64,000 bases of DNA from Candidatus Saccharimonadales bacterium. Lineage in GTDB: Bacteria; Patescibacteriota; Saccharimonadia; Saccharimonadales; SZUA-47. The stretch covers positions 95,309 through 159,308 of the forward strand of contig JBBQVE010000001.1 of assembly GCA_038211855.1 (NCBI GenBank). The letters run 5' to 3'. This document shows positions 5,187 to 52,987 of this stretch, in pieces (positions within the stretch are counted from its first letter, which is position 1; each line of letters opens with the position of its first letter). The translations under genes were made by a program, and so were the position numbers. The notes under the pieces were generated by a model that saw only the letters and a list, made by a program, of their open reading frames with translations, made no database searches and was not told the DNA's origin.

Positions 5187-6545
5187 CTATTCGGTGAAAG
5201 TTTCGGTGTGACGCTTGTCGATACCCTTAAACTGCTGTTTTTCGCGATCGAAGAAGATTTCGACGTGGCCGGTAGGTCCGTTACGATGTTTCTTGATGAA
5301 TAAGTCGACGATGCTGCGCCGCTCGGATTCGGGGTTATAGTAATCTTCGCGGTAAATAAAGGCTACGACGTCGGCATCCTGCTCAATAGAACCGGATTCA
5401 CGGAGGTCGGCCAGCTGTGGAATTTGTGGGCTTCGGCTTTCAACCGAACGGCTGAGCTGGCTGAGGGCGATAATTGGCACATTGAGTTCACGAGCGACAC
5501 TTTTGAGGCCACGGGAGATTTCGGAGATTTCTTGGACGCGATTGCCGTCACCACCAAACTTGCTGCCACCGCTCATCAGTTGCAAGTAGTCGACTACAAT
5601 CAGTCCGAGCGGCCTACGATGCGCCTCGCGTCGGGCCTTGGTGCGGAGGTCGCTGATAGTGAGTCCAGGTGTATCGTCGATAAACATTTGGGCTTCACTG
5701 AGCGAGCCCATGGCTTGGCCAATCTTTTCAAAATCGCTATCTGTTAAATTACCTGTACGCAGGTTCCAAGCGTCAACACCAGCTTCGGCTGCTAACAGAC
5801 GGTCGACTAATTGTTCTTTGCTCATTTCGAGCGAGAACATGACCACTGGGAAGCCGGCTTTCATGGACACATTATGGGCGAAATTAAGTGCCAAGGCAGT
5901 TTTCCCCATCGAAGGACGGGCGGCCAGAATAATCAAATCGCTTCTTTGGAAGCCGCCGAGCATGTTGTCGAGGTCACGGAAACCGGTCGGAATGCCGCGG
6001 ATTTTACCTTTGTCTTTATGTAGCTCATCCAGTCGATCAAAACTGGCACTCAAAATATCCTCGAGACTTACTAAGTCCTGCGACACATGTCGTTGGCTCA
6101 CCTCAAACAGTCGGGCTTCAGCTTCTTCTATCAGATCTTTAAAACTTCGCGCTTCGTCGTAACTGTAGCCGGTAATGTCTTGCGAGGCTTTGATAAGACG
6201 GCGGCGCATGGCCTTGGTGGCGACGATTTCGGCGTATTGCTCAACATGTGTGGCGGTTGGGACGTAGTTCGTAAGTTCGGTGATGTAGCTCGCACCGCCT
6301 ACCGTCGCAAGCAACTCCTTATTTTTGAGCTGTTCGGTGAGCGTGAGAATGTCAATCGGGCTGTGGCGCTCATAGAGACTGACCGCTGCCTCATAAATGT
6401 AGCGGTGACGTTCATCGTAAAAATCCTGCGGCTTAATCAGATCGGCAATCTTGACGATGGCTTCACTGTCAATCAATAGCGATCCAAGCAACGAGGCTTC
6501 AGCTTCGGTGCTCTGCGGCGGTATACGGGCAGCTTTGTCGTCCAT
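5187..6545 (-). CDS. dnaB: Replicative DNA helicase DnaB
   Basis: 452 aa with Walker A ARPSMGKT, the DnaB N-terminal domain PPQSTEAEASLLGSLL, and the RecA-like IVVDYLQLM. Confidence 0.96.
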   Translation of the reverse strand: MDDKAARIPPQSTEAEASLLGSLLIDSEAIVKIADLIKPQDFYDERHRYIYEAAVSLYERHSPIDILTLTEQLKNKELLATVGGASYITELTNYVPTATHVEQYAEIVATKAMRRRLIKASQDITGYSYDEARSFKDLIEEAEARLFEVSQRHVSQDLVSLEDILSASFDRLDELHKDKGKIRGIPTGFRDLDNMLGGFQRSDLIILAARPSMGKTALALNFAHNVSMKAGFPVVMFSLEMSKEQLVDRLLAAEAGVDAWNLRTGNLTDSDFEKIGQAMGSLSEAQMFIDDTPGLTISDLRTKARREAHRRPLGLIVVDYLQLMSGGSKFGGDGNRVQEISEISRGLKSVARELNVPIIALSQLSRSVESRSPQIPQLADLRESGSIEQDADVVAFIYREDYYNPESERRSIVDLFIKKHRNGPTGHVEIFFDREKQQFKGIDKRHTETFTE

Positions 6546-14132: not shown

Positions 14133-15296
14133 TCAAGCAGTGACACCACGAGCTGCCAATCGTCCACTACGCCCTTGGTACTTGCCTTCTTCGTGAACCG
14201 CATTGGTTGTATGCCCCCAGAAAGTGGGGTCAAACGGCGTGTAAATACGATGTCCGCCCTTCAAGATGCCATCGCTGTGAATGCCCGAGCGATGCGCCAG
14301 AATATCGCTTCCAACGACGGGACTTTGCCGGTCGATTTCGAAGTTGGCGAAATGCATTACAGTTTTTGCAATATTAACGGACAGACCAGGATTAAACTCC
14401 CAGTTAATACGTTTTGGGTAATCCTCGGCAAAACGGAATAAACTGGCGACAATCGGAAATATATTTGCATTTCCTGCTCGCTCGCCTAGACCACAAATAG
14501 TAGTTTCTACCTGGACGCGTATATCATGGGACACGGGAAAATAAGCAGCCGCTTCTATAAGCGCCAAGCTATTTGCTACTGCCATGCCCAAATCATTATG
14601 ATTGTGAGATGAGACTGTCACATCTGGATTTGTAGCCATAACCCACCTTAAAACTTTGCCATAAAATGTTCGCATAAATGCAGGCGAACGCTGTCCGACT
14701 GTGTCAGGAACATTAATGACATCAGCTCCGGCATCTACGGCTGTTTTTACGACTCGTTCAAGATAGTTCATATCTGTAGTTGAGGCGGCTTCTGCTGAAA
14801 ACTCAACACTGGCACCAATGTGATCAGCGCTTATCTCTTTGGCGTACCGCACTGCGTTACGTGCCATATCGTGCACATCATCAGGAGTTTTACTGGGAAA
14901 CTTAGCACTCATATGATGCGGATCGGTGGAGACAAAAGTATGGATGCGCGGTCGAGCGGCGCCCATAACTGCTGCCCATGTTTTTTCTATATCAGAGGGC
15001 AAGGTACGAGATAAGCCGGCAATGACGGGTGGTCTTGCTACTGCCTCGCTCTTACCACTTTCATTCCAACTACAGACGGTGAAGTCAGTGGTACCAACTC
15101 CCATCGCAGCAACTTCTACTTCTTCGGCATCGCTCGGCGTCGCTGGAAAACCAGCTTCAATAACTCCTATACCTAGGTGCGCAATCGCGTTGGCAATTAC
15201 CGGTTTACTGTTGTCAGGAAACTGGTGATCTGCTGGGAGCGATTGCGCGCCGTCCCTTAATGTCGTGTCAAAAAAATCTATATGTATTTCGCCCAT
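14133..15296 (-). CDS. LeuA/CimA/NifV-family (HMGL-like DRE-TIM) acyl-CoA:2-oxoacid condensing enzyme homolog, catalytic domain only
   Basis: FDTTLRDGAQS, HNHNDLGMAVANSLALIEAA. At 387 aa it lacks the C-terminal LeuA regulatory domain. Confidence 0.75.
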   Translation of the reverse strand: MGEIHIDFFDTTLRDGAQSLPADHQFPDNSKPVIANAIAHLGIGVIEAGFPATPSDAEEVEVAAMGVGTTDFTVCSWNESGKSEAVARPPVIAGLSRTLPSDIEKTWAAVMGAARPRIHTFVSTDPHHMSAKFPSKTPDDVHDMARNAVRYAKEISADHIGASVEFSAEAASTTDMNYLERVVKTAVDAGADVINVPDTVGQRSPAFMRTFYGKVLRWVMATNPDVTVSSHNHNDLGMAVANSLALIEAAAYFPVSHDIRVQVETTICGLGERAGNANIFPIVASLFRFAEDYPKRINWEFNPGLSVNIAKTVMHFANFEIDRQSPVVGSDILAHRSGIHSDGILKGGHRIYTPFDPTFWGHTTNAVHEEGKYQGRSGRLAARGVTA

Positions 15297-48268: not shown

Positions 48269-49145
48269 GATCAAACCTTGTAGCAAAGTCATTTGGCAAC
48301 GGCGCTTCAAAGGTGTGCATGGTGTCGTCGGGCAAACGGATTGTGAGTTTATGCGCGTGAAGATACATGCGCGGTTCATTTTTGTCGTCGCTGTACAGGA
48401 TATCGCCGATTATTGGGTGGCCGATGTGCTCCATATGGAGGCGGAGTTGGTGTGTTCTGCCTGTCAGCGGATGCAAGTCTATCATTGAGACGGTTTTGTT
48501 GCTTTTGACGATTTTATAGATGGTCTCAGCGTGTTTACCGGCCTTATCTACCTTGAACTGCTGGGGAATTTTTGGGTTGCGCGCTAAAGCAGCGATGATA
48601 TGTGCTTCTTCAACATCAGGCGTACCATGGACCAAGGCAACATATTCTTTTTGGACTTTCTTATCGGAAAATTCCTTCTGCAGGAACGTTTGAGCTACTT
48701 GGTTGCGGGCAGCAATCATGACGCCGCTGGTGGCACGATCCAGGCGGTGTACGATGCCGGCTCGTTCGCCGACCATATCTTTGGTTTTATCCCTGATAAA
48801 CGAGGCAACTGAGGCTTCTTGCCAAAAACGGCCACGGGCGTGACTGATGATGCCGGCGGGCTTGTCGACAACTATCACATCTTCATTCTCAAAAATAACG
48901 GGTAAATCAATCACATCCGGCTCTTGCTCGAGTGGACTCAGATTGGCTTTCATGACCTGCCCTATCTTGAGTTTATCGCCAGGGCGGCCCGGTTCGCCGT
49001 CTATCGTGATATTGCCCATATCAAACAATTTCTTGAGGGCAGCACGACTGTACTGGGTAAAGGCATCAGCCAAGACGACATCAGCTCGCTTTCGGGCCGT
49101 CGTTTCGTCGATCGTCAGATCCATGGCGTGTGCGAGGTCAGGCAC
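48261..49145 (-). CDS. RluA-family 23S rRNA pseudouridine synthase (RluD-like) with an S4 domain
   Basis: HRLDRATSGVMIAARN catalytic motif. Confidence 0.9.
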   Translation of the reverse strand: MPDLAHAMDLTIDETTARKRADVVLADAFTQYSRAALKKLFDMGNITIDGEPGRPGDKLKIGQVMKANLSPLEQEPDVIDLPVIFENEDVIVVDKPAGIISHARGRFWQEASVASFIRDKTKDMVGERAGIVHRLDRATSGVMIAARNQVAQTFLQKEFSDKKVQKEYVALVHGTPDVEEAHIIAALARNPKIPQQFKVDKAGKHAETIYKIVKSNKTVSMIDLHPLTGRTHQLRLHMEHIGHPIIGDILYSDDKNEPRMYLHAHKLTIRLPDDTMHTFEAPLPNDFATRFDHG

Positions 49146-50169
49146 GGAGACCTACGGCTTTTTGTACCTTAAATAGCGTGTTATTGGCGACCTTATTCAT
49201 GGTGATTTCATCTTCCTCGAGCTTTTTGTGAATCTCCTGCACACTTGTCTTGGCGAGTTTAGCCTGGAAATCCGTCAAAAAGTCCTTGATAAACCCGGCG
49301 ACCTCCGTTTTTAGGGGGCCATATTGGGCCTGTCCTTGCCACTTTTCAATATATTCAGCAACGTGCTGAGCGCTCAAAAGAGCACCGATTTGGAGCAGAT
49401 TACTAATACCGGGTCGTTCTTTGAAGTTGAACTGAATATCGGCAAAACTATCGGTTGTGGCACTCATAATCTTTTTAGCAGCCGCTTCCGGTGCATCGGT
49501 CATTAGAATGGTTCCGGCTGGGTCCTCGACACTCTTACTCATCTTCTTTTCGGGATTTCGCAGTGAGCGGATACGGATGCTTTCGTCACGACCGGTAAAC
49601 GCGACCTGCTTTTTCCATTCGGGCGGCACAACGAATAACTCACCGAATTTACTGTTAAGGCGTAAGGCGAGATCGCGCGTGAGTTCAAGATGCTGTCTCT
49701 GGTCATCACCAAGCGGAACATAGGTGGCGTTGTAGAGTAGGATATCCGCTGCCATGAGGATCGGATAATTGAACTGACCAACGGAAACTGTTTCGTTACC
49801 GATTTTGGCGGATTTATCTTTGAACTCAATCATGCGGCTGGCCTCGCCAAAATAGGTGAAGCAATCCAATATCCAGGCAAGCTCGCTATGGGCTGGCACA
49901 TAACTTTGGCGGTAAATGAAAGTGTCTTTATCTTCAATATCGAGTCCGGCAGCCACGAAAACTTGCAGATTTGCCATGATGTTACCCAGTAGCTTACTGT
50001 GGTCAATCGGCGTAGTAAAGCTATGCAAGTCAGGAATGAACATGTTGACCTGATATTTGCCGGCGTATTTCTTTTGGAGTTCGACCATCGGCAAAATCGC
50101 CCCTAGGTAGTTACCGAGGTGGAATTCGCTGTTTGCTCGAAGCCCCGTTAATATGACTGGTTTACTCAT
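49138..50169 (-). CDS. trpS: Tryptophan--tRNA ligase
   Basis: FHLGNYLGA (HIGH-like) and KMSKS. ATG 50169 lies 12 nt after a minus-strand TGCTATAAT (50190..50182); the track ORF extends to 50202. Confidence 0.93.
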   Translation of the reverse strand: MSKPVILTGLRANSEFHLGNYLGAILPMVELQKKYAGKYQVNMFIPDLHSFTTPIDHSKLLGNIMANLQVFVAAGLDIEDKDTFIYRQSYVPAHSELAWILDCFTYFGEASRMIEFKDKSAKIGNETVSVGQFNYPILMAADILLYNATYVPLGDDQRQHLELTRDLALRLNSKFGELFVVPPEWKKQVAFTGRDESIRIRSLRNPEKKMSKSVEDPAGTILMTDAPEAAAKKIMSATTDSFADIQFNFKERPGISNLLQIGALLSAQHVAEYIEKWQGQAQYGPLKTEVAGFIKDFLTDFQAKLAKTSVQEIHKKLEEDEITMNKVANNTLFKVQKAVGLRA

Positions 50170-50205
50170 CGTAGTGGTCTCATTATAGCAAGAACTGTTC
50201 AAGAG

Positions 50206-51072
50206 CTAGGCCTCCATCCTCAAGATAGCCTCAAAGTGCTGCAAATCACGCTCAACCTGATAACTGTGAGCGGTACAATTACTATCATTGCCGGCCAAAA
50301 CGTCGTCTAACAGCTGCTCGCCCCCACTACCTATTGAAAAGGGCGATATGACATGTTGCGTGAGCACCTGAACAGATGGGACTGTAAGGCTAGCGGGCAT
50401 TATGTTCCCCACTCCGCTGCATGCCGCATGCGTGAGGCGATCCTGCTCAGGACCTACCGTGACAATTCGCTTCGGGGAGACAATATTGGCCGCATTGAAG
50501 AGTGTATGAAGGTGCAGGAACTTTGTGTGAGTCCCTGTAAACCTAGCGCCTATAAAATCAGCGGGGTTTCCGCCGTGTCGCTGCGCACGCTCATACAACT
50601 TCCGCCTAATGTAATAGTCGGTGCTCATATATCGTTCTACGATAGGTTCCATAGTATTAATATGCTCTGGGGTGGTGTCTTCAGCAAAAATTGTTTTTTC
50701 AGATATGTCGGGCATGTTTCTATGGAGGAGAGCTGATCCAAAGAGCGCTAATTTTTTAAATTGTGGCAGTGAATCGACTAGGGCAACCCCGTTCACTTGT
50801 TCTCCAACTTTTGCAGTGTGGATTATCTGTAACTGCTCAATAGGTACGAGCTGTGCTATACGAGCTGCCGAAAGTAGCAAAGTAGCCGCACGCATAGGCA
50901 TCTGCTTCTTAGCATCGACGAAGACCCTTAAGACATTTCCTTCTCCGCCTGAATGTTCAAGTACTTCTTCAAAGGCTGGTTTGTCTGCTTTTATGACGCT
51001 TTCGACGTATGCCAATTCGTCTTTAACGAGCTGTTTACTCATCCGTGAAGCGCGTGGTGTTAAGTCTTTCAT
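50206..51072 (-). CDS. Hypothetical protein (288 aa from ATG 51072)
   Basis: SD AAGGA lies 8 nt upstream of ATG 51072. No recognised motif. Confidence 0.55.
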   Translation of the reverse strand: MKDLTPRASRMSKQLVKDELAYVESVIKADKPAFEEVLEHSGGEGNVLRVFVDAKKQMPMRAATLLLSAARIAQLVPIEQLQIIHTAKVGEQVNGVALVDSLPQFKKLALFGSALLHRNMPDISEKTIFAEDTTPEHINTMEPIVERYMSTDYYIRRKLYERAQRHGGNPADFIGARFTGTHTKFLHLHTLFNAANIVSPKRIVTVGPEQDRLTHAACSGVGNIMPASLTVPSVQVLTQHVISPFSIGSGGEQLLDDVLAGNDSNCTAHSYQVERDLQHFEAILRMEA

Positions 51073-51252
51073 AGTAAAATTCCTTTTCAAAAATGTATTA
51101 AATTTAAATGTCCGTCACGTGTATCCGGTGACGGACTATTCAATGCATTCGAATTTTTACAAACAAACAGAATAAACCATCACGGTGGAGAGATGGTGAG
51201 CCAATAGCCTTTGATTATAATTCGTAGTGTAAACATTGTTTTGTCTTTAGGT

Positions 51253-51552
51253 CTACAGAAATTCACCTGTAGCAATATTAATTGTAATAGGTGGCGAGTC
51301 GGGTACTTCTGTGGGAGGTTCAAGCGGTCCGGTGAGCAGCAAAGCAAGCTCTCCAGCTTTAGCACGGATCTCTTTATGAAAATCTATTCGTTCCCAGCTC
51401 GTCAGATGACCTATGGAACATTCGGCAAGCGACATAAGATGCGTCGCTATGTTAGGCCGTATGTCGCTCGCCTTAATCACGCCATTCTTATAGGCATCTT
51501 TGATACTTTGAGGGATTTGTTCGATTGGATTGGGTTCTATTTCATCAGTCAT
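51253..51552 (-). CDS. Hypothetical protein (99 aa)
   Basis: ORF overlapping the upstream gene's stop by 4 nt, suggesting translational coupling. Confidence 0.5.
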   Translation of the reverse strand: MTDEIEPNPIEQIPQSIKDAYKNGVIKASDIRPNIATHLMSLAECSIGHLTSWERIDFHKEIRAKAGELALLLTGPLEPPTEVPDSPPITINIATGEFL

Positions 51553-52379
51553 GGTACTTTCACCTTTTTCGGTGCTCTTATTGGAGGTATGAGTTCGATA
51601 TGGTAGCCTTCCCGCTCAATCCCTCTAAGTGCACATCTCGTATCAAATTTACGTGTTTTTGGGTCGAGTACAAAGTAAAAACCTCTGTTAAAGTCTGTGT
51701 CTTCTGGCGCATTCCGCCGTGCCATATTGATGAGGTTGACAGTCTTAAGATGATTCAACACTCTGTCAAGTGATCCTATTCTGTGGTCAGTCAGCACATA
51801 GAGCGTTTCTGCTTTGTGTGGTCGTTTTAGACCCTTTTGACCGGGCCAATTGTCATGTAGCGGTGTCGCAAGTTGTTTTGACCGGGTCGGAATAACTTCT
51901 AGTGTACTGATAGGTGTATAAGATCCCAGAATGACCGGCGCGAGTCCTTTTAGCCTCATTTGATTGAGCGCACGCTTTACGACGCCGTCGTGCTGTTCGA
52001 GCTCAGCAAAGAAGGCGCGGTGATGCGTATCTTTTGGAGCGAGATGGCTATCAATGTCAGTAATATTTACGCCGTTTTTTCTCAGAATATTTGTTGTTGT
52101 TCGTAAACCGCCCGCTTCGTCAGGTACTTCAAAGGTAATTGCGGTGTGGGTGCCTTCTTGCTCATGGCCTTTTTGCAAAGGATGTACAACCCAGAACTTT
52201 GTGGCATTATGGGGTGAGTCATCAAATTCTGCGTTGGTCTGAAAACGATTTAGCAACTCATCATGTGTAGCGACAGGAACGAGCTCCACTCCTTGTAATG
52301 ATTGCCCATAGTAAACACGAGCCGCTTCTTCGTGGAAGGAGCCGCCTAACGCCTCTGCTTGGATACCTACTAACTTCAT
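51549..52379 (-). CDS. Prephenate-dehydratase-derived protein: a truncated PDT remnant plus two ACT-like domains
   Basis: N-terminal MKLVGIQAEALGGSFHEEAA matches the PheA start. NATKFWVV matches the PDT C-terminal N.TRF.V block. FEVPDEAGGLRTTTNILRKNGVNITDIDS is ACT-like, as is the second YVLTDHRIGSLDRVLNHLKTVNLINM. The central roughly 100 aa of the PDT catalytic core appear absent. Confidence 0.5.
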   Translation of the reverse strand: MKLVGIQAEALGGSFHEEAARVYYGQSLQGVELVPVATHDELLNRFQTNAEFDDSPHNATKFWVVHPLQKGHEQEGTHTAITFEVPDEAGGLRTTTNILRKNGVNITDIDSHLAPKDTHHRAFFAELEQHDGVVKRALNQMRLKGLAPVILGSYTPISTLEVIPTRSKQLATPLHDNWPGQKGLKRPHKAETLYVLTDHRIGSLDRVLNHLKTVNLINMARRNAPEDTDFNRGFYFVLDPKTRKFDTRCALRGIEREGYHIELIPPIRAPKKVKVP

Positions 52380-52386
52380 ATTTATT

Positions 52387-52408
52387 AAAAAACCGCCTTG
52401 TTGGCGGT
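52387..52408 (-). terminator. Hairpin plus U6 (attenuator terminator of leader C)
   Basis: Minus strand ACCGCC-AACAA-GGCGGU followed by UUUUUU, ending 7 nt before the ATG at 52379. Confidence 0.75.
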
Positions 52409-52432
52409 CTGTGCTTTCTTCTCAAAACTTAT

Positions 52433-52528
52433 TTATTGAATTACAAAAACCGCTGGAGTTGACTCCGTAAACCAAAAGTAGCTGTTATAGCGGTTTAAAT
52501 TGCTCATCCAACAGATAGTAGCACACAT
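52433..52528 (-). CDS. Candidate leader peptide C, MCATICWMSNLNRYNSYFWFTESTPAVFVIQ
   Basis: 31 codons with an alternative start at ATG 52507. Contains the run UAU AAC AGC UAC UUU UGG UUU. No clear SD. Confidence 0.4.
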   Translation of the reverse strand: MCATICWMSNLNRYNSYFWFTESTPAVFVIQ

Positions 52529-52541
52529 TATTGCCAAAAAC

Positions 52542-52573
52542 AAAAAACTTCCCGTTTGGCTGGGAAGTTTTTT
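52542..52573. terminator. Terminator after rpsI
   Basis: AAAAAACTTCCC-GTTTGGCT-GGGAAGTTTTTT. Confidence 0.85.
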
Positions 52574-52591: not shown

Positions 52592-52987
52592 TTAACGCTT
52601 GGTGAACTGACGCTGTTTACGTGCGCCCTTGAGGCCGAACTTCTTACGTTCGCGTTCACGAGGATCGCGACCGAGGAGCTCCGCACGTTTCAAGGTGCTT
52701 TTGAGATCTTCGTTCATTACAACGAGGGCTTTGGCGATTCCGAGGCTGATTGCATCAACCTGACCGGCGTGACCGCCACCGCTGACGAGAACAGACACAT
52801 CAAACTTATCGTTTTCGATGACAACAAATGGCTTTACGAGATCAGTCATCAACATAGCACTGCCAGCGAAGTACTCGCTTGCGGGTACCTTATTGATCGT
52901 AATGATGCCTTTGCCATTCATGACTCGAACACGAGCTGTGGCGCTCTTGCGACGGCCGAGGCCGTAAAAATAACTCTTTTCAGCCAT
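52592..52987 (-). CDS. rpsI: 30S ribosomal protein S9
   Basis: GGGHAGQVDAISLGIAKAL...KKFGLKGARKQRQFTKR. Confidence 0.97.
   Translation of the reverse strand: MAEKSYFYGLGRRKSATARVRVMNGKGIITINKVPASEYFAGSAMLMTDLVKPFVVIENDKFDVSVLVSGGGHAGQVDAISLGIAKALVVMNEDLKSTLKRAELLGRDPRERERKKFGLKGARKQRQFTKR

Follow-up and report, generated by a model that had tools for sequence, protein, structure and literature searches.

A complete prephenate dehydratase (PDT) catalytic domain comprises about 180 residues arranged in two subdomains, and in bacterial PheA proteins, such as those of Chlorobium tepidum (2qmx) and Brucella (6vh5), this domain (PF00800) is joined to an ACT domain. PMC13217925 describes the Thr-Arg-Phe (TRF) motif as critical for PDT catalysis, on the strength of mutagenesis in the E. 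coli and C. glutamicum enzymes, and GALV and ESRP are given there as the Phe-binding consensus motifs of PDT-type ACT domains. Two other kinds of described system also bear on the locus considered here. The tandem-ACT modules of IlvA (9d2s), the SerB2 ACT pair, GcvR-like proteins (1u8s) and the AHAS small subunits are one, and the other is the leader-peptide attenuator exemplified by E. coli pheL-pheA and trpL, where a short ORF in which codons for the regulated amino acids are clustered is followed by an intrinsic terminator directly 5' of the structural gene, and an alternative hairpin, whose other strand lies at the leader stop codon, takes up the terminator 5' arm. We have analysed a 64-kb stretch of a Saccharimonadales contig (hereafter the window), in which a gene of 276 codons can be set beside each of these systems. 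All of the features described below lie on the minus strand.

The 276-aa ORF (51549..52379) is an internally deleted PDT-ACT-ACT2 gene, as seen from the ORF list, Pfam and NCBIfam searches and an alignment with homologues. Set against six of these, the protein occupies alignment columns 1-54 and those from 185 onwards, with one gap of 130 columns between them; about 125-130 central PDT residues are absent, in frame. What is left on the N-terminal side is a PDT stub (aa 1-46; 52242..52379) that represents the first two strand-helix pairs of the PDT fold, followed by the deletion junction, where LLNRF meets QTNAEF (52230..52253), and by the NATKFWV block at the TRF-motif position (52188..52208). 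The alignment thus bears out the proposal of the initial annotation that the first 46 or so residues and the NATKF block of PDT are retained without the central portion, the GGSFHEEAA block near the N-terminus and NATKFWV both being present. Its further suggestion that the catalytic Thr-Arg-Phe region had been deleted does not hold, as this position is occupied by Thr60-Lys61-Phe62, with Thr and Phe kept and Arg replaced by Lys as in most members of the family. The stretch that has gone is the one in which full-length relatives hold the conserved VDNNTSGRV and SQxPALDQC motifs, and its removal eliminates one PDT subdomain entirely and the second in part.

Profile searches give the same picture. 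Pfam reports no PDT match in the 276-aa protein and ACT alone, at residues 80-126 (E 7.7e-6; 26.0 bits, below the gathering cut-off of 27), and the NCBIfam PDT equivalog NF008865 matches at residues 51-155 only, which correspond to positions 168-277 of a 284-position profile, scoring 43 bits where the cut-off is 219; a complete PDT domain is therefore absent and ACT similarity present, as had been anticipated. AlphaFold2 predicts the sister protein's PDT domain with a pLDDT of about 90, in a fold that matches PDT crystal structures (TM 0.80 and E 4e-20 for 2qmx), and the stub in the 276-aa protein reaches pLDDT values of only 32-41, which extend across residues 1-74. Compared with PheA, then, the window protein still has the GGSFH block, TKF at the TRF position and an ACT domain alignable with those of PDT and phenylalanine hydroxylase, but about 125 catalytic-domain residues are gone. 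Given the loss of a PDT subdomain together with two conserved motifs, we infer that the product cannot be a working prephenate dehydratase, and annotation of the gene as such is inappropriate.

It might be argued that the real gene is full length and that the gap reflects mis-assembly or a minority deletion variant, since there is a single NCBI record for the protein and metagenome-assembled genomes can collapse variants. We consider this highly improbable. The junction is in frame, and the missing segment leaves no trace elsewhere in the window: an HMM built from the 130 deleted columns, run with filters off and E <=100, matched nothing in any frame of the 64 kb, which also rules out a moved or inverted PDT segment within the window. 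A Logan contig (L015, from SRR19962015) produced by a different assembler is 100% identical over 50662..52404, junction included, and although the two assemblies may share the same reads, the deletion is for this reason not the artefact of one assembler.

The six homologues, of 389-400 aa, all carry a Pfam PDT domain and are 33-44% identical to the window protein over the retained parts; full-length relatives match PF00800 with E 1e-30. Wherever length could be settled, every relative found has 389-446 aa with complete PDT, ACT and ACT2, a range that also holds for the approximately 18 best-scoring representative clusters with matches over the full profile length. The 276-aa form itself is a singleton in a search of 5.8 billion protein clusters, and is the sole internally deleted form among the best 150 of 9,642 matches drawn from 1.84 billion representatives. 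A 247-aa match is judged a fragment because it falls into a cluster at >=90% identity with a 400-aa protein. Separately, a 221-aa protein (P0024) begins at the TRF block and may be either a fragment or a second truncated form.

Together with the identity of the retained parts, the position of the gene between rpsI and trpS establishes its orthology with full-length PDT genes. The order rplQ-rplM-rpsI, PDT, trpS-rluD is found at three related loci (L001, L002 and L003), and the same rplQ-to-rluD order is seen in L004 and L005 as far as those short contigs extend. L005, the nearest relative at 82% ribosomal-protein identity, has its PDT gene intact at 389 aa; scans of genomes and metagenomes yielded no relative above 82% ribosomal-protein identity, and contributed three distant loci besides a single new full-length one. 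Across lineages the site holds DAHP synthase of type I or II, the three-domain PheA, TrpBA and genes of unknown function. L001 has a racemase-like gene broken into ORFs of 83 and 128 aa and matches DAHP synthase only weakly, PDT is missing entirely from L014, and the window contains no DAHP synthase, no TrpBA and no 250-aa dehydrogenase-like gene. Some Saccharimonadales thus possess a variable aromatic amino-acid island at a fixed site between rpsI and trpS, which different lineages hold in different states of decay. Our literature search found no paper on PDT in Saccharibacteria.

The retained C-terminal portion consists of two ACT modules. ACT1 (aa 78-154; 51918..52148) is of the PDT/PAH type, and ACT2 (aa 191-264; 51588..51809), a diverged duplicate of ACT1 in which Pfam detects no ACT domain, is common to all family members. 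Comparison of the two profiles with hhalign gives a probability of 94.7% (E 6e-8), AlphaFold2 predicts two beta-alpha-beta-beta-alpha-beta units at residues 78-154 and 191-264 with pLDDT 80-93, and Foldseek searches with the 276-aa model retrieve tandem-ACT proteins at E 2e-7 to 1e-6. These analyses agree with the earlier assignment of one ACT domain and a second ACT-like repeat, and on the predicted structure the second repeat is real. The model resembles described tandem-ACT modules in its two consecutive ACT-fold units, with a TM score of 0.61 to the regulatory domain of IlvA (E. coli threonine deaminase), but sequence identity to such modules is 10-18%, and the window pair is the leftover of an enzyme's regulatory end where those form recognised modules; it belongs to no conserved stand-alone family. 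The additional C-terminal repeat sets the whole family apart from PheA, as do K (or T) in place of the R of TRF and the replacement of GALV and ESRP by GGL and DSHL. In ACT1 of the window protein these positions read GGLR and IDSHL. If any activity remains in the 276-aa protein, the models suggest that it would be the binding of aromatic amino acids by ACT1-ACT2.

It is from this point that two readings of the truncated gene diverge. We hold with moderate confidence that it is a lineage-specific deletion allele of a three-domain pheA-type gene behind an intact attenuator, that is, a young remnant and not a dedicated sensor, the remnant probably being a product of the island's reductive evolution. 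The stub is predicted to be unfolded yet is perfectly conserved: none of its 8-9 family-invariant residues is violated, and it shows 0-2 unique changes where the sister shows 2-8, a pattern that suggests a recent deletion. Rates in the portions that remain are not raised relative to the intact sister gene (Tajima relative-rate chi-square 0.02-1.9, not significant), and the 6 of 46 family-invariant positions that the window protein violates are no more than are violated by intact members in a leave-one-out comparison; with neither test giving acceleration, we rejected relaxed selection on these parts. All 276 codons are uninterrupted by stop or frameshift. Measured against what is expected of a pseudogene, an essential part has been lost, but the frame is undisrupted and constraint is not relaxed, and the intact frame and absence of acceleration are compatible with a very recent deletion.

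The intact ORF, the unaccelerated rate, the confident ACT models, the intact attenuator and the coupling to the next ORF would be equally expected, however, if selection were acting on the tandem-ACT remainder. According to this second reading, selection has preserved ACT1-ACT2 as a regulator that binds aromatic amino acids; this regulator might be expressed when charged Phe, Trp and Tyr tRNAs are scarce, and its target might perhaps be the 99-aa or the 288-aa product of the adjacent genes. The retained invariant residues and the fold, which resembles not only IlvA but also SerB2, GcvR-like proteins and AHAS small subunits, are in keeping with such a role. We nevertheless regard it as doubtful. 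A stand-alone regulator should have its architecture conserved across genomes, and neither the cluster search nor the best 150 of the 9,642 matches confirmed a second genome with it; the paired ACT domains go back to the ancestor of the whole family, so that the deletion did not create them and they are no novelty of the 276-aa protein; and the 46-aa stub, superfluous for a sensor, is the best-conserved part, as a very young deletion would predict. To this may be added the departure of ACT1 (GGLR/DSHL) from the Phe-binding GALV/ESRP consensus (PMC13217925) and the want of an evident target. The initial annotation's verdict of a sensor rather than an enzyme consequently stands for the loss of the enzyme, but its sensor half is weakened by the singleton status of the truncated form and the ancestral origin of the tandem. 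In its fullest form, in which a CPR bacterium without Phe synthesis turned the regulatory end of PheA into a free, attenuator-controlled tandem-ACT sensor of aromatic amino acids, we think the idea unlikely; were it true, an enzyme-to-sensor conversion would have been caught at its origin, within a regulatory system undescribed for Patescibacteria.

The 99-aa ORF (51253..51552) overlaps the 276-aa ORF by ATGA, confirming the coupling proposed earlier, and its codon usage is coding-like, features which a regulator with a partner would lead one to expect. Its product has no homologue in 5.8 billion clusters, Pfam, NCBIfam, PADLOC or PHROGs, which counts against such a role; the search for co-occurrence of the two genes that had been proposed came back empty, and with an orphan partner co-occurrence therefore gives no support for a two-gene system. 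In relatives a Rossmann-type gene of about 250 aa stands after PDT (ATGA-coupled in L007, with a 1-nt overlap in L002 and a 12-nt gap in L004), and the notion that the 99-aa ORF is a decayed form of it was rejected at an hhalign probability of 0.2%.

Taken by itself, the truncated gene is of modest importance, a further snapshot of reductive evolution in a symbiotic lineage with small genomes, and its surroundings, the island and the attenuators, matter more. Beyond rpsI and its intrinsic terminator (AAAAAACTTCCC-loop-GGGAAGTTTTTTG; 52541..52573) lies a promoter-like element composed of TTGTTT, a 17-nt spacer and an extended -10, TGcTACTAT (52515..52543), which stops 7 nt upstream of the ATG of a leader ORF. 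This is the aromatic-codon leader noted previously; it reads MSNLNRYNSYFWFTESTPAVFVIQ and stop (52433..52507), has homologues in relatives and contains the putative regulatory codons Tyr-Phe-Trp-Phe as TAC TTT TGG TTT (52469..52480). The candidate antiterminator strand AGCGGTT (52448..52454) is a near copy of the terminator 3' arm and pairs with the 5' arm, and the attenuator terminator, GACCGCC-AACAA-GGCGGTTTTTT (52387..52409), ends 7 nt upstream of the ATG of the 276-aa ORF. Promoter, leader and terminator all look intact. A ribosome stalled at Tyr-Phe-Trp-Phe would leave AGCGGTT free to pair with the terminator 5' arm, giving read-through, and a ribosome at the leader stop codon would mask this segment and so allow the terminator to form. 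This mechanism, which we infer from conserved geometry and compensatory changes, would match pheL-pheA and trpL in the clustered codons of a short ORF, in the terminator directly 5' of the structural gene and in the alternative hairpin that takes the terminator 5' arm and has its other strand at the leader stop codon.

The arrangement recurs in relatives. We count ten leader copies over six loci, all with aromatic codons at a fixed position, the homologous leaders being those of L005, L001 (two copies), L002, L003 and L014; the window has YFWF as its cluster where relatives have YWF, FAFFAF or FYFWF, and the genes that follow encode PDT, DAHP synthases of types I and II and the 288-aa protein. 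When the RNA preceding emergence of the 3' arm is folded, the terminator 5' arm pairs with the end of the leader ORF in nine of the ten copies. In all ten, the end of the best duplex lies 57-61 nt from the leader ATG, and the duplex was equalled by shuffled sequences in 0-43 of 1000 trials per copy, each copy beating 95.7-100% of them. Two compensatory events were read by eye, because the MAFFT alignment of the leaders had L003 out of register in the terminator. One is in L002, where GGCGGT/ACCGCC has become GGCGAT/ATCGCC with three segments changing together (GGCGAT/ATCGCC/GGCGAT), and the other is in leader 2, where GTGGCG/CGCCAC changes to GTGACG/CGTCAC between L014 and L005.

These leaders differ from described leader-peptide attenuators in several respects. 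No Rfam family matches them in the window or the five related loci, and the codon cluster in Saccharimonadales comprises 3-5 codons only, with Tyr, Trp and Phe combined. Read directly from the sequences, the -10 also stands 6-9 nt from the leader ATG in L001, L002, L003, L005 and L014, so near that the transcript would be leaderless or nearly so. The sequences therefore point to a conserved and previously undescribed leader-peptide attenuator, with translation apparently starting on a leaderless transcript. Our literature search found no report of attenuation in Saccharimonadales, CPR or Patescibacteria, and if the finding is confirmed, leader-peptide attenuation reaches the Candidate Phyla Radiation; the attenuators would moreover mark genes tied to aromatic amino-acid supply, such as the 288-aa gene beside trpS. 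A heuristic scan of the window found leader 1 alone as an attenuator of this type. Scan matches at about 14101 and 12408 were set aside, as they look like the ordinary terminator of a LeuA-like gene and the region upstream of rplJ.

A second leader precedes the 288-aa gene. Leader ORF 2 reads MFTLRIIIKGYWLTISPP and stop (51180..51236), with Tyr-Trp codons at 51201-51206, and its candidate antiterminator strand CGTGATGG (51177..51184) overlaps the leader stop codon. The 9-bp hairpin which the initial annotation placed at 51110..51136 is indeed located there, as GTCCGTCAC-loop-GTGACGGAC, but is no mere separator of the coupled pair from the next gene; it appears to be the terminator of this second leader-peptide attenuator. 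Its T-run is weak in the window and proper in L005. The gene that follows (288 aa from ATG 51072, 50206..51072; or 294 aa from TTG 51090) is of unknown function, and the 294-aa protein has neither a PDB nor a Pfam match. Homologues were found at two loci only, following PDT in L005 and a class II DAHP synthase in L014, and the possibility that the gene is a DAHP synthase relic, as in L001, was rejected for absence of similarity.

This downstream context raises a further explanation for the open frame of the 276-aa ORF, namely that its product is functionless and the ORF is kept as a translated spacer, nonsense or frameshift alleles being polar on leader 2 and the 288-aa gene, which would share the attenuated promoter. 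There is no convincing promoter before leader 2 in the window, unlike in L014 and L001, where clear ones are present, no terminator was seen between the 99-aa ORF and leader 2, and the ATGA coupling would hold ribosomes on the mRNA as far as that leader. Rho-dependent polarity in this organism is assumed, however, the 288-aa gene has no known essential role, and the one downstream gene that is clearly essential, trpS, comes with an extended -10 of its own (TGcTATAAT, 50182-50190); we judge this explanation improbable and retain the recent deletion allele as the preferred reading. The trpS ORF (49138..50202; likely start ATG 50169) begins about 1.05 kb past the stop codon of the 99-aa ORF, in line with the position downstream of the pair originally assigned to it.

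The 276-aa ORF (51549..52379, minus strand) is an internally deleted PheA-type protein, to which the name prephenate dehydratase (PDT) should not be applied. The initial annotation had taken it for a PDT relic, and this holds: Pfam finds no PDT domain, the sole domain being ACT (residues 80-126, E 7.7e-6, 26.0 bits, slightly below the ACT cut-off of 27 bits), and against the NCBIfam prephenate dehydratase equivalog residues 51-155 alone align, with profile positions 168-277 of 284. The same stretch aligns with PDB sequences of PDT and phenylalanine hydroxylase, NATKF lying opposite NTTRF and IDSHL at the ESRP position. Searched against 5.8 billion protein clusters, the protein matched its own entry (one member, from one 165,565-bp NCBI contig) and six relatives of 389-400 aa and 33-44% identity, all six carrying the Pfam PDT domain. 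In the family alignment the 276-aa protein fills columns 1-54 and 185 to the end, and the single 130-column gap between these removes the family-conserved motifs VDNNTSGRV and SQxPALDQC, leaving the GGSFHEEAA and NATKFWV blocks. The Thr-Arg-Phe position of PDT has been described as critical for catalysis (PMC13217925), and its region had been thought deleted; because the gap spares the NATKFWV block, however, the position is retained as Thr-Lys-Phe, and what is lost is the remainder of the active-site cleft. An HMM of the deleted columns found no match in the six frames of the window, and the segment has therefore been lost rather than moved.

Structure prediction agrees with the sequence evidence and points to a protein whose catalytic domain is destroyed and whose regulatory end is intact. 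The AlphaFold2 model, built on a 7-sequence alignment (mean pLDDT 64), contains two beta-alpha-beta-beta-alpha-beta units (residues 78-154 and 191-264, pLDDT 80-93), and residues 1-74 are at pLDDT 32-41; the PDT stub, the N-terminal 46 residues, is not folded in this model and cannot form a PDT domain. Its Foldseek matches in the PDB are tandem-ACT regulatory modules, namely SerB2, the IlvA regulatory domain (TM 0.61 normalised to target), the GcvR-like 1u8s and AHAS small subunits, and PDT is matched across 85 ACT-domain columns alone. The model of the full-length sister protein has a mean pLDDT of 81, with its PDT domain near 90, and superposes on PDT crystal structures (2qmx, TM 0.80 and E 4e-20, and also 6vh5 and 7am0). 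Every full-length relative has a C-terminal extension of ~120 residues after the first ACT unit (ACT1), and the match between ACT1 and ACT2 segment profiles in hhalign (probability 94.7%, E 6e-8, 72 columns) identifies ACT2 as a diverged duplicate of ACT1. Both units are real and ancestral to the PDT-ACT-ACT2 family, and the reading of one ACT domain with a second ACT-like repeat is borne out by Pfam (for ACT1), hhalign, AlphaFold2 and Foldseek. One of the solved structures nearest to this family, GqqA (PDB 7alz/7am0), has the PDT fold and is described by its depositors as a quorum-quenching acylase; the fold can thus serve activities other than that of a dehydratase, a point that may bear on the full-length relatives with their TKF variant.

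With HMMER, the family profile detected 9,642 PDT relatives in an exhaustive search of 1.84 billion representatives. The top-scoring ones that cover all three domains of the profile form ~18 clusters of 389-446 aa, all full length, and the 276-aa protein is the sole internal deletion (two separate matched stretches) among the top-scoring representatives listed. It is very improbable that this form is an artefact: the stretch 50662..52404, which holds the junction, the 99-aa ORF, the second leader and the start of the next gene, recurs with 100% identity in a 1,743-bp Logan contig assembled from run SRR19962015, which rules out an artefact of a single assembler. A 247-aa match was rejected as a second truncated form, since it clusters at at least 90% identity with a 400-aa protein and is a fragment. 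A 221-aa family member (P0024; ENA contig, 5,364 bp) starts with MFSDNPDSTTRFW, exactly at the TRF block, and continues with ACT1 and ACT2; the gene call may have been shortened by a contig end or by the start codon chosen, or this may be another PDT-less form of independent origin. Scans of genomes and metagenomes yielded one further locus, in a Saccharimonadales MAG (L002), and no relative closer than those already found.

By concatenated RpsI, RplM and RplQ, the closest relative of the window is L005 (82% identity), in which the PDT gene is intact. Tajima relative-rate tests of the 276-aa protein against this sister with five outgroups (chi-square 0.02-1.9) reveal no rate acceleration. At the 46 positions invariant in other members the protein has six violations, within the range of intact members; the 46-residue stub has none, and 0-2 unique changes compared with 2-8 in the sister. 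Had the deletion been old, the stub would have been free to drift; we therefore take the deletion to postdate the split from L005 by a wide margin, and we lean, by a little, towards a young deletion allele that is functionless or not yet purged. The same data are also expected for a constrained tandem-ACT protein, and it would take a closer relative to separate the two readings. The proposal of a sensor rather than an enzyme stands in its relic half, the deletion being confirmed; the sensor half is possible but unsupported, and we consider a retained tandem-ACT ligand-binding role doubtful.

The minus-strand gene order is rpoA, rplQ, rplM, rpsI (52592..52987), a 212-nt spacer, the 276-aa ORF, the 99-aa ORF (51253..51552), a 162-nt spacer, a 294-aa ORF (50206..51090), trpS (49138..50202) and an RluD-type pseudouridine synthase, and the coordinates and lengths first assigned were all correct. 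The 294-aa ORF more likely starts at ATG 51072, giving 288 aa (50206..51072). An extended -10 (TGcTATAAT, 50182..50190) lies 12 nt upstream of the likely trpS start (ATG 50169), within the 3' end of the preceding gene, and trpS probably has its own promoter. The 99-aa ORF overlaps the stop of the 276-aa ORF as ATGA; that the longer frame is kept open solely to avoid polarity seems to us quite unlikely. Co-occurrence of the two genes in other genomes, suggested as a check, found no support, the 99-aa protein having no homologues in any search run, and it was rejected as a member of the 250-aa family found 3' of PDT elsewhere, to which it is unrelated. It sits in ~300 bp absent from the sister locus, where leader 2 begins 7 nt past the PDT stop. 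In the annotated frame its codons resemble those of coding sequence (0.176 bits per codon; the 5th percentile of real-gene windows is 0.063), the values in all other frames are negative, and the ORF may have arisen recently as a gene.

Most worth further study are the conserved aromatic-codon attenuators and the decaying island around them. The aromatic-codon leader proposed before the 276-aa ORF is present, with homologues in relatives. Between the rpsI terminator (52541..52573) and ATG 52379, all on the minus strand, lie a promoter-like element (TTGTTT, 17-nt spacer, TGcTACTAT), the leader 1 ORF MSNLNRYNSYFWFTESTPAVFVIQ (52433..52507), starting 7 nt past TGcTACTAT, and the terminator GACCGCC-AACAA-GGCGGTTTTTT (52387..52409). 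Leaders, each closed by a stop codon as in the window, precede PDT in L005 (MKTVNTYSYFWFTETTPAV), L001 (MLISKHNAMYWFTDFNEAVI) and L003 (MLANISAFAFFAFTDSKEAVR), a class I DAHP synthase in L002 (MSTTTQNCAYWFASFKKAIV), a DAHP-synthase-like gene in L001 (MSITTRNNSNYWFTDFTKAVYSTYPDF) and a class II DAHP synthase in L014 (MISREMNTFYFWFTTSPTWRLPSYCQ). The attenuators, with mixed Tyr/Trp/Phe codons, occupy 52387..52543 (minus strand) in the window, 5840-5990 and 7320-7480 in L001, 4050-4190 in L002, 1810-1960 in L003, 1730-1860 in L005 and 6440-6620 in L014.

In every copy the terminator 3' arm is repeated at the 3' end of the leader ORF, as an antiterminator strand. Folding the RNA only as far as the start of the terminator 3' arm pairs the 5' arm with the leader ORF end in nine of ten copies; in each of the ten, the best duplex has its end 57-61 nt from the leader ATG, and shuffled upstream sequence equals it in 0-43 of 1000 trials per copy. 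In L002 all three segments have changed together (GGCGAT, ATCGCC, GGCGAT). In several copies the antiterminator strand has a further possible partner in the codons right behind the aromatic cluster (ACCGAC), which completes the 1:2, 2:3, 3:4 layout of the trp and pheA leaders. We infer from this anatomy that leader 1 would act as a classical, conserved leader-peptide attenuator. Wherever a -10 element can be read directly (leader 1 of the window and of L005, both leaders of L001 and of L014, L002 and L003), it lies 6-9 nt 5' of the leader ATG, which suggests that the leader is translated from a leaderless or nearly leaderless transcript. Rfam gave no match to the leaders in the window or five related loci, and we found no published report of attenuation in Patescibacteria or CPR.

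The 9-bp hairpin GTCCGTCAC-loop-GTGACGGAC (51110..51136, minus strand) is correctly placed in the initial annotation; it is not a mere separator, and belongs to a second attenuator with its own leader and alternative pairing. The leader 2 ORF MFTLRIIIKGYWLTISPP, closed by a stop (51180..51236), lies 3' of the 99-aa ORF, and the hairpin 5' arm can pair with the antiterminator segment CGTGATGG (51177..51184), which contains the leader 2 stop. The element recurs in L005, with a proper T-run, and in L014, with its own promoter (TTGACT-18-TGgTATAAT) and a co-varied helix (GTGGCGGTCT with AGATCGCCAC); L008 has a partial copy. This type, a Tyr-Trp (or Asn-Trp-Tyr) leader 5' of the 288-aa gene, lies at 51110..51236 (minus strand) in the window, 3044-3200 in L005, 7840-7990 in L014 and about 1440-1555 in L008. 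Behind the regulatory codons comes a conserved nucleotide block, CGTG(G/A)(C/T)GG..TTC.GT.TG.TTG; the leader ORF of L014 and L008 continues across it (RGGLFR), and that of the window and L005 ends ahead of it or within it. The window copy has a weak T-run and no convincing promoter, including a -10, 5' of leader 2, so transcription may run on from attenuator 1 through the truncated gene.

Gene order around the PDT gene is conserved, and the contents of the island vary by locus. L003 has rplQ-rplM-rpsI, PDT (400 aa), a 61-aa ORF, trpS and rluD; L005 and L006 have rpsI, PDT (389 aa) and a homologue of the 288-aa gene; L004 has rpsI, PDT and a 248-aa gene; and L007 has PDT ATGA-coupled to a 257-aa gene. 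L002 carries rpsI, class I DAHP synthase, PDT, a 252-aa gene, a 75-aa ORF, TrpB, TrpA and trpS, and L001 rpsI, two unrelated genes, PDT, a weak DAHP-synthase-like gene, an Asp/Glu-racemase-like gene as 83- and 128-aa ORFs, and trpS. L014, without PDT, has class II DAHP synthase, a homologue of the 288-aa gene, an intact 231-aa racemase-like gene and trpS. DAHP synthase, TrpBA and the 250-aa gene are absent from the 64-kb window, which, given these differences between loci, is one state of a piecemeal loss in several lineages. Decay in another lineage is seen at L001 7488-9089, where the racemase-like gene is split and the DAHP-synthase-like gene matches PF00793 weakly (E 1.5e-6).

The ~250-aa family 3' of PDT (L002 6653-7411, L007 1665-2438, L004 2942-3688) overlaps PDT by 1 nt in L002 and is separated from it by 12 nt in L004. 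Its members carry a GxGxxG Rossmann motif at the N-terminus together with a conserved EHD..MA.SQ block, and we take the family to resemble prephenate/arogenate dehydrogenase (TyrA), a likeness that Pfam and PDB profile searches did not confirm. The 288-301-aa family (window 50206..51072, minus strand; L014 8001-8906; L005 3230-3736) has no match in Pfam, NCBIfam, PDB, PADLOC or PHROG. It is always inside the aromatic island, 3' of PDT or class II DAHP synthase and 5' of trpS, and always behind a Trp-codon leader, and it may provide an unrecognised step in aromatic amino-acid metabolism, or a regulator of it. Elsewhere in the window, a 387-aa ORF (14133..15296, minus strand) starting with MGEIHIDFFDTTLRDGAQS is presumably, as recognised by eye, an isopropylmalate/citramalate/homocitrate synthase (HMGL-like) catalytic domain, which would be unexpected in a lineage thought to be without amino-acid biosynthesis.
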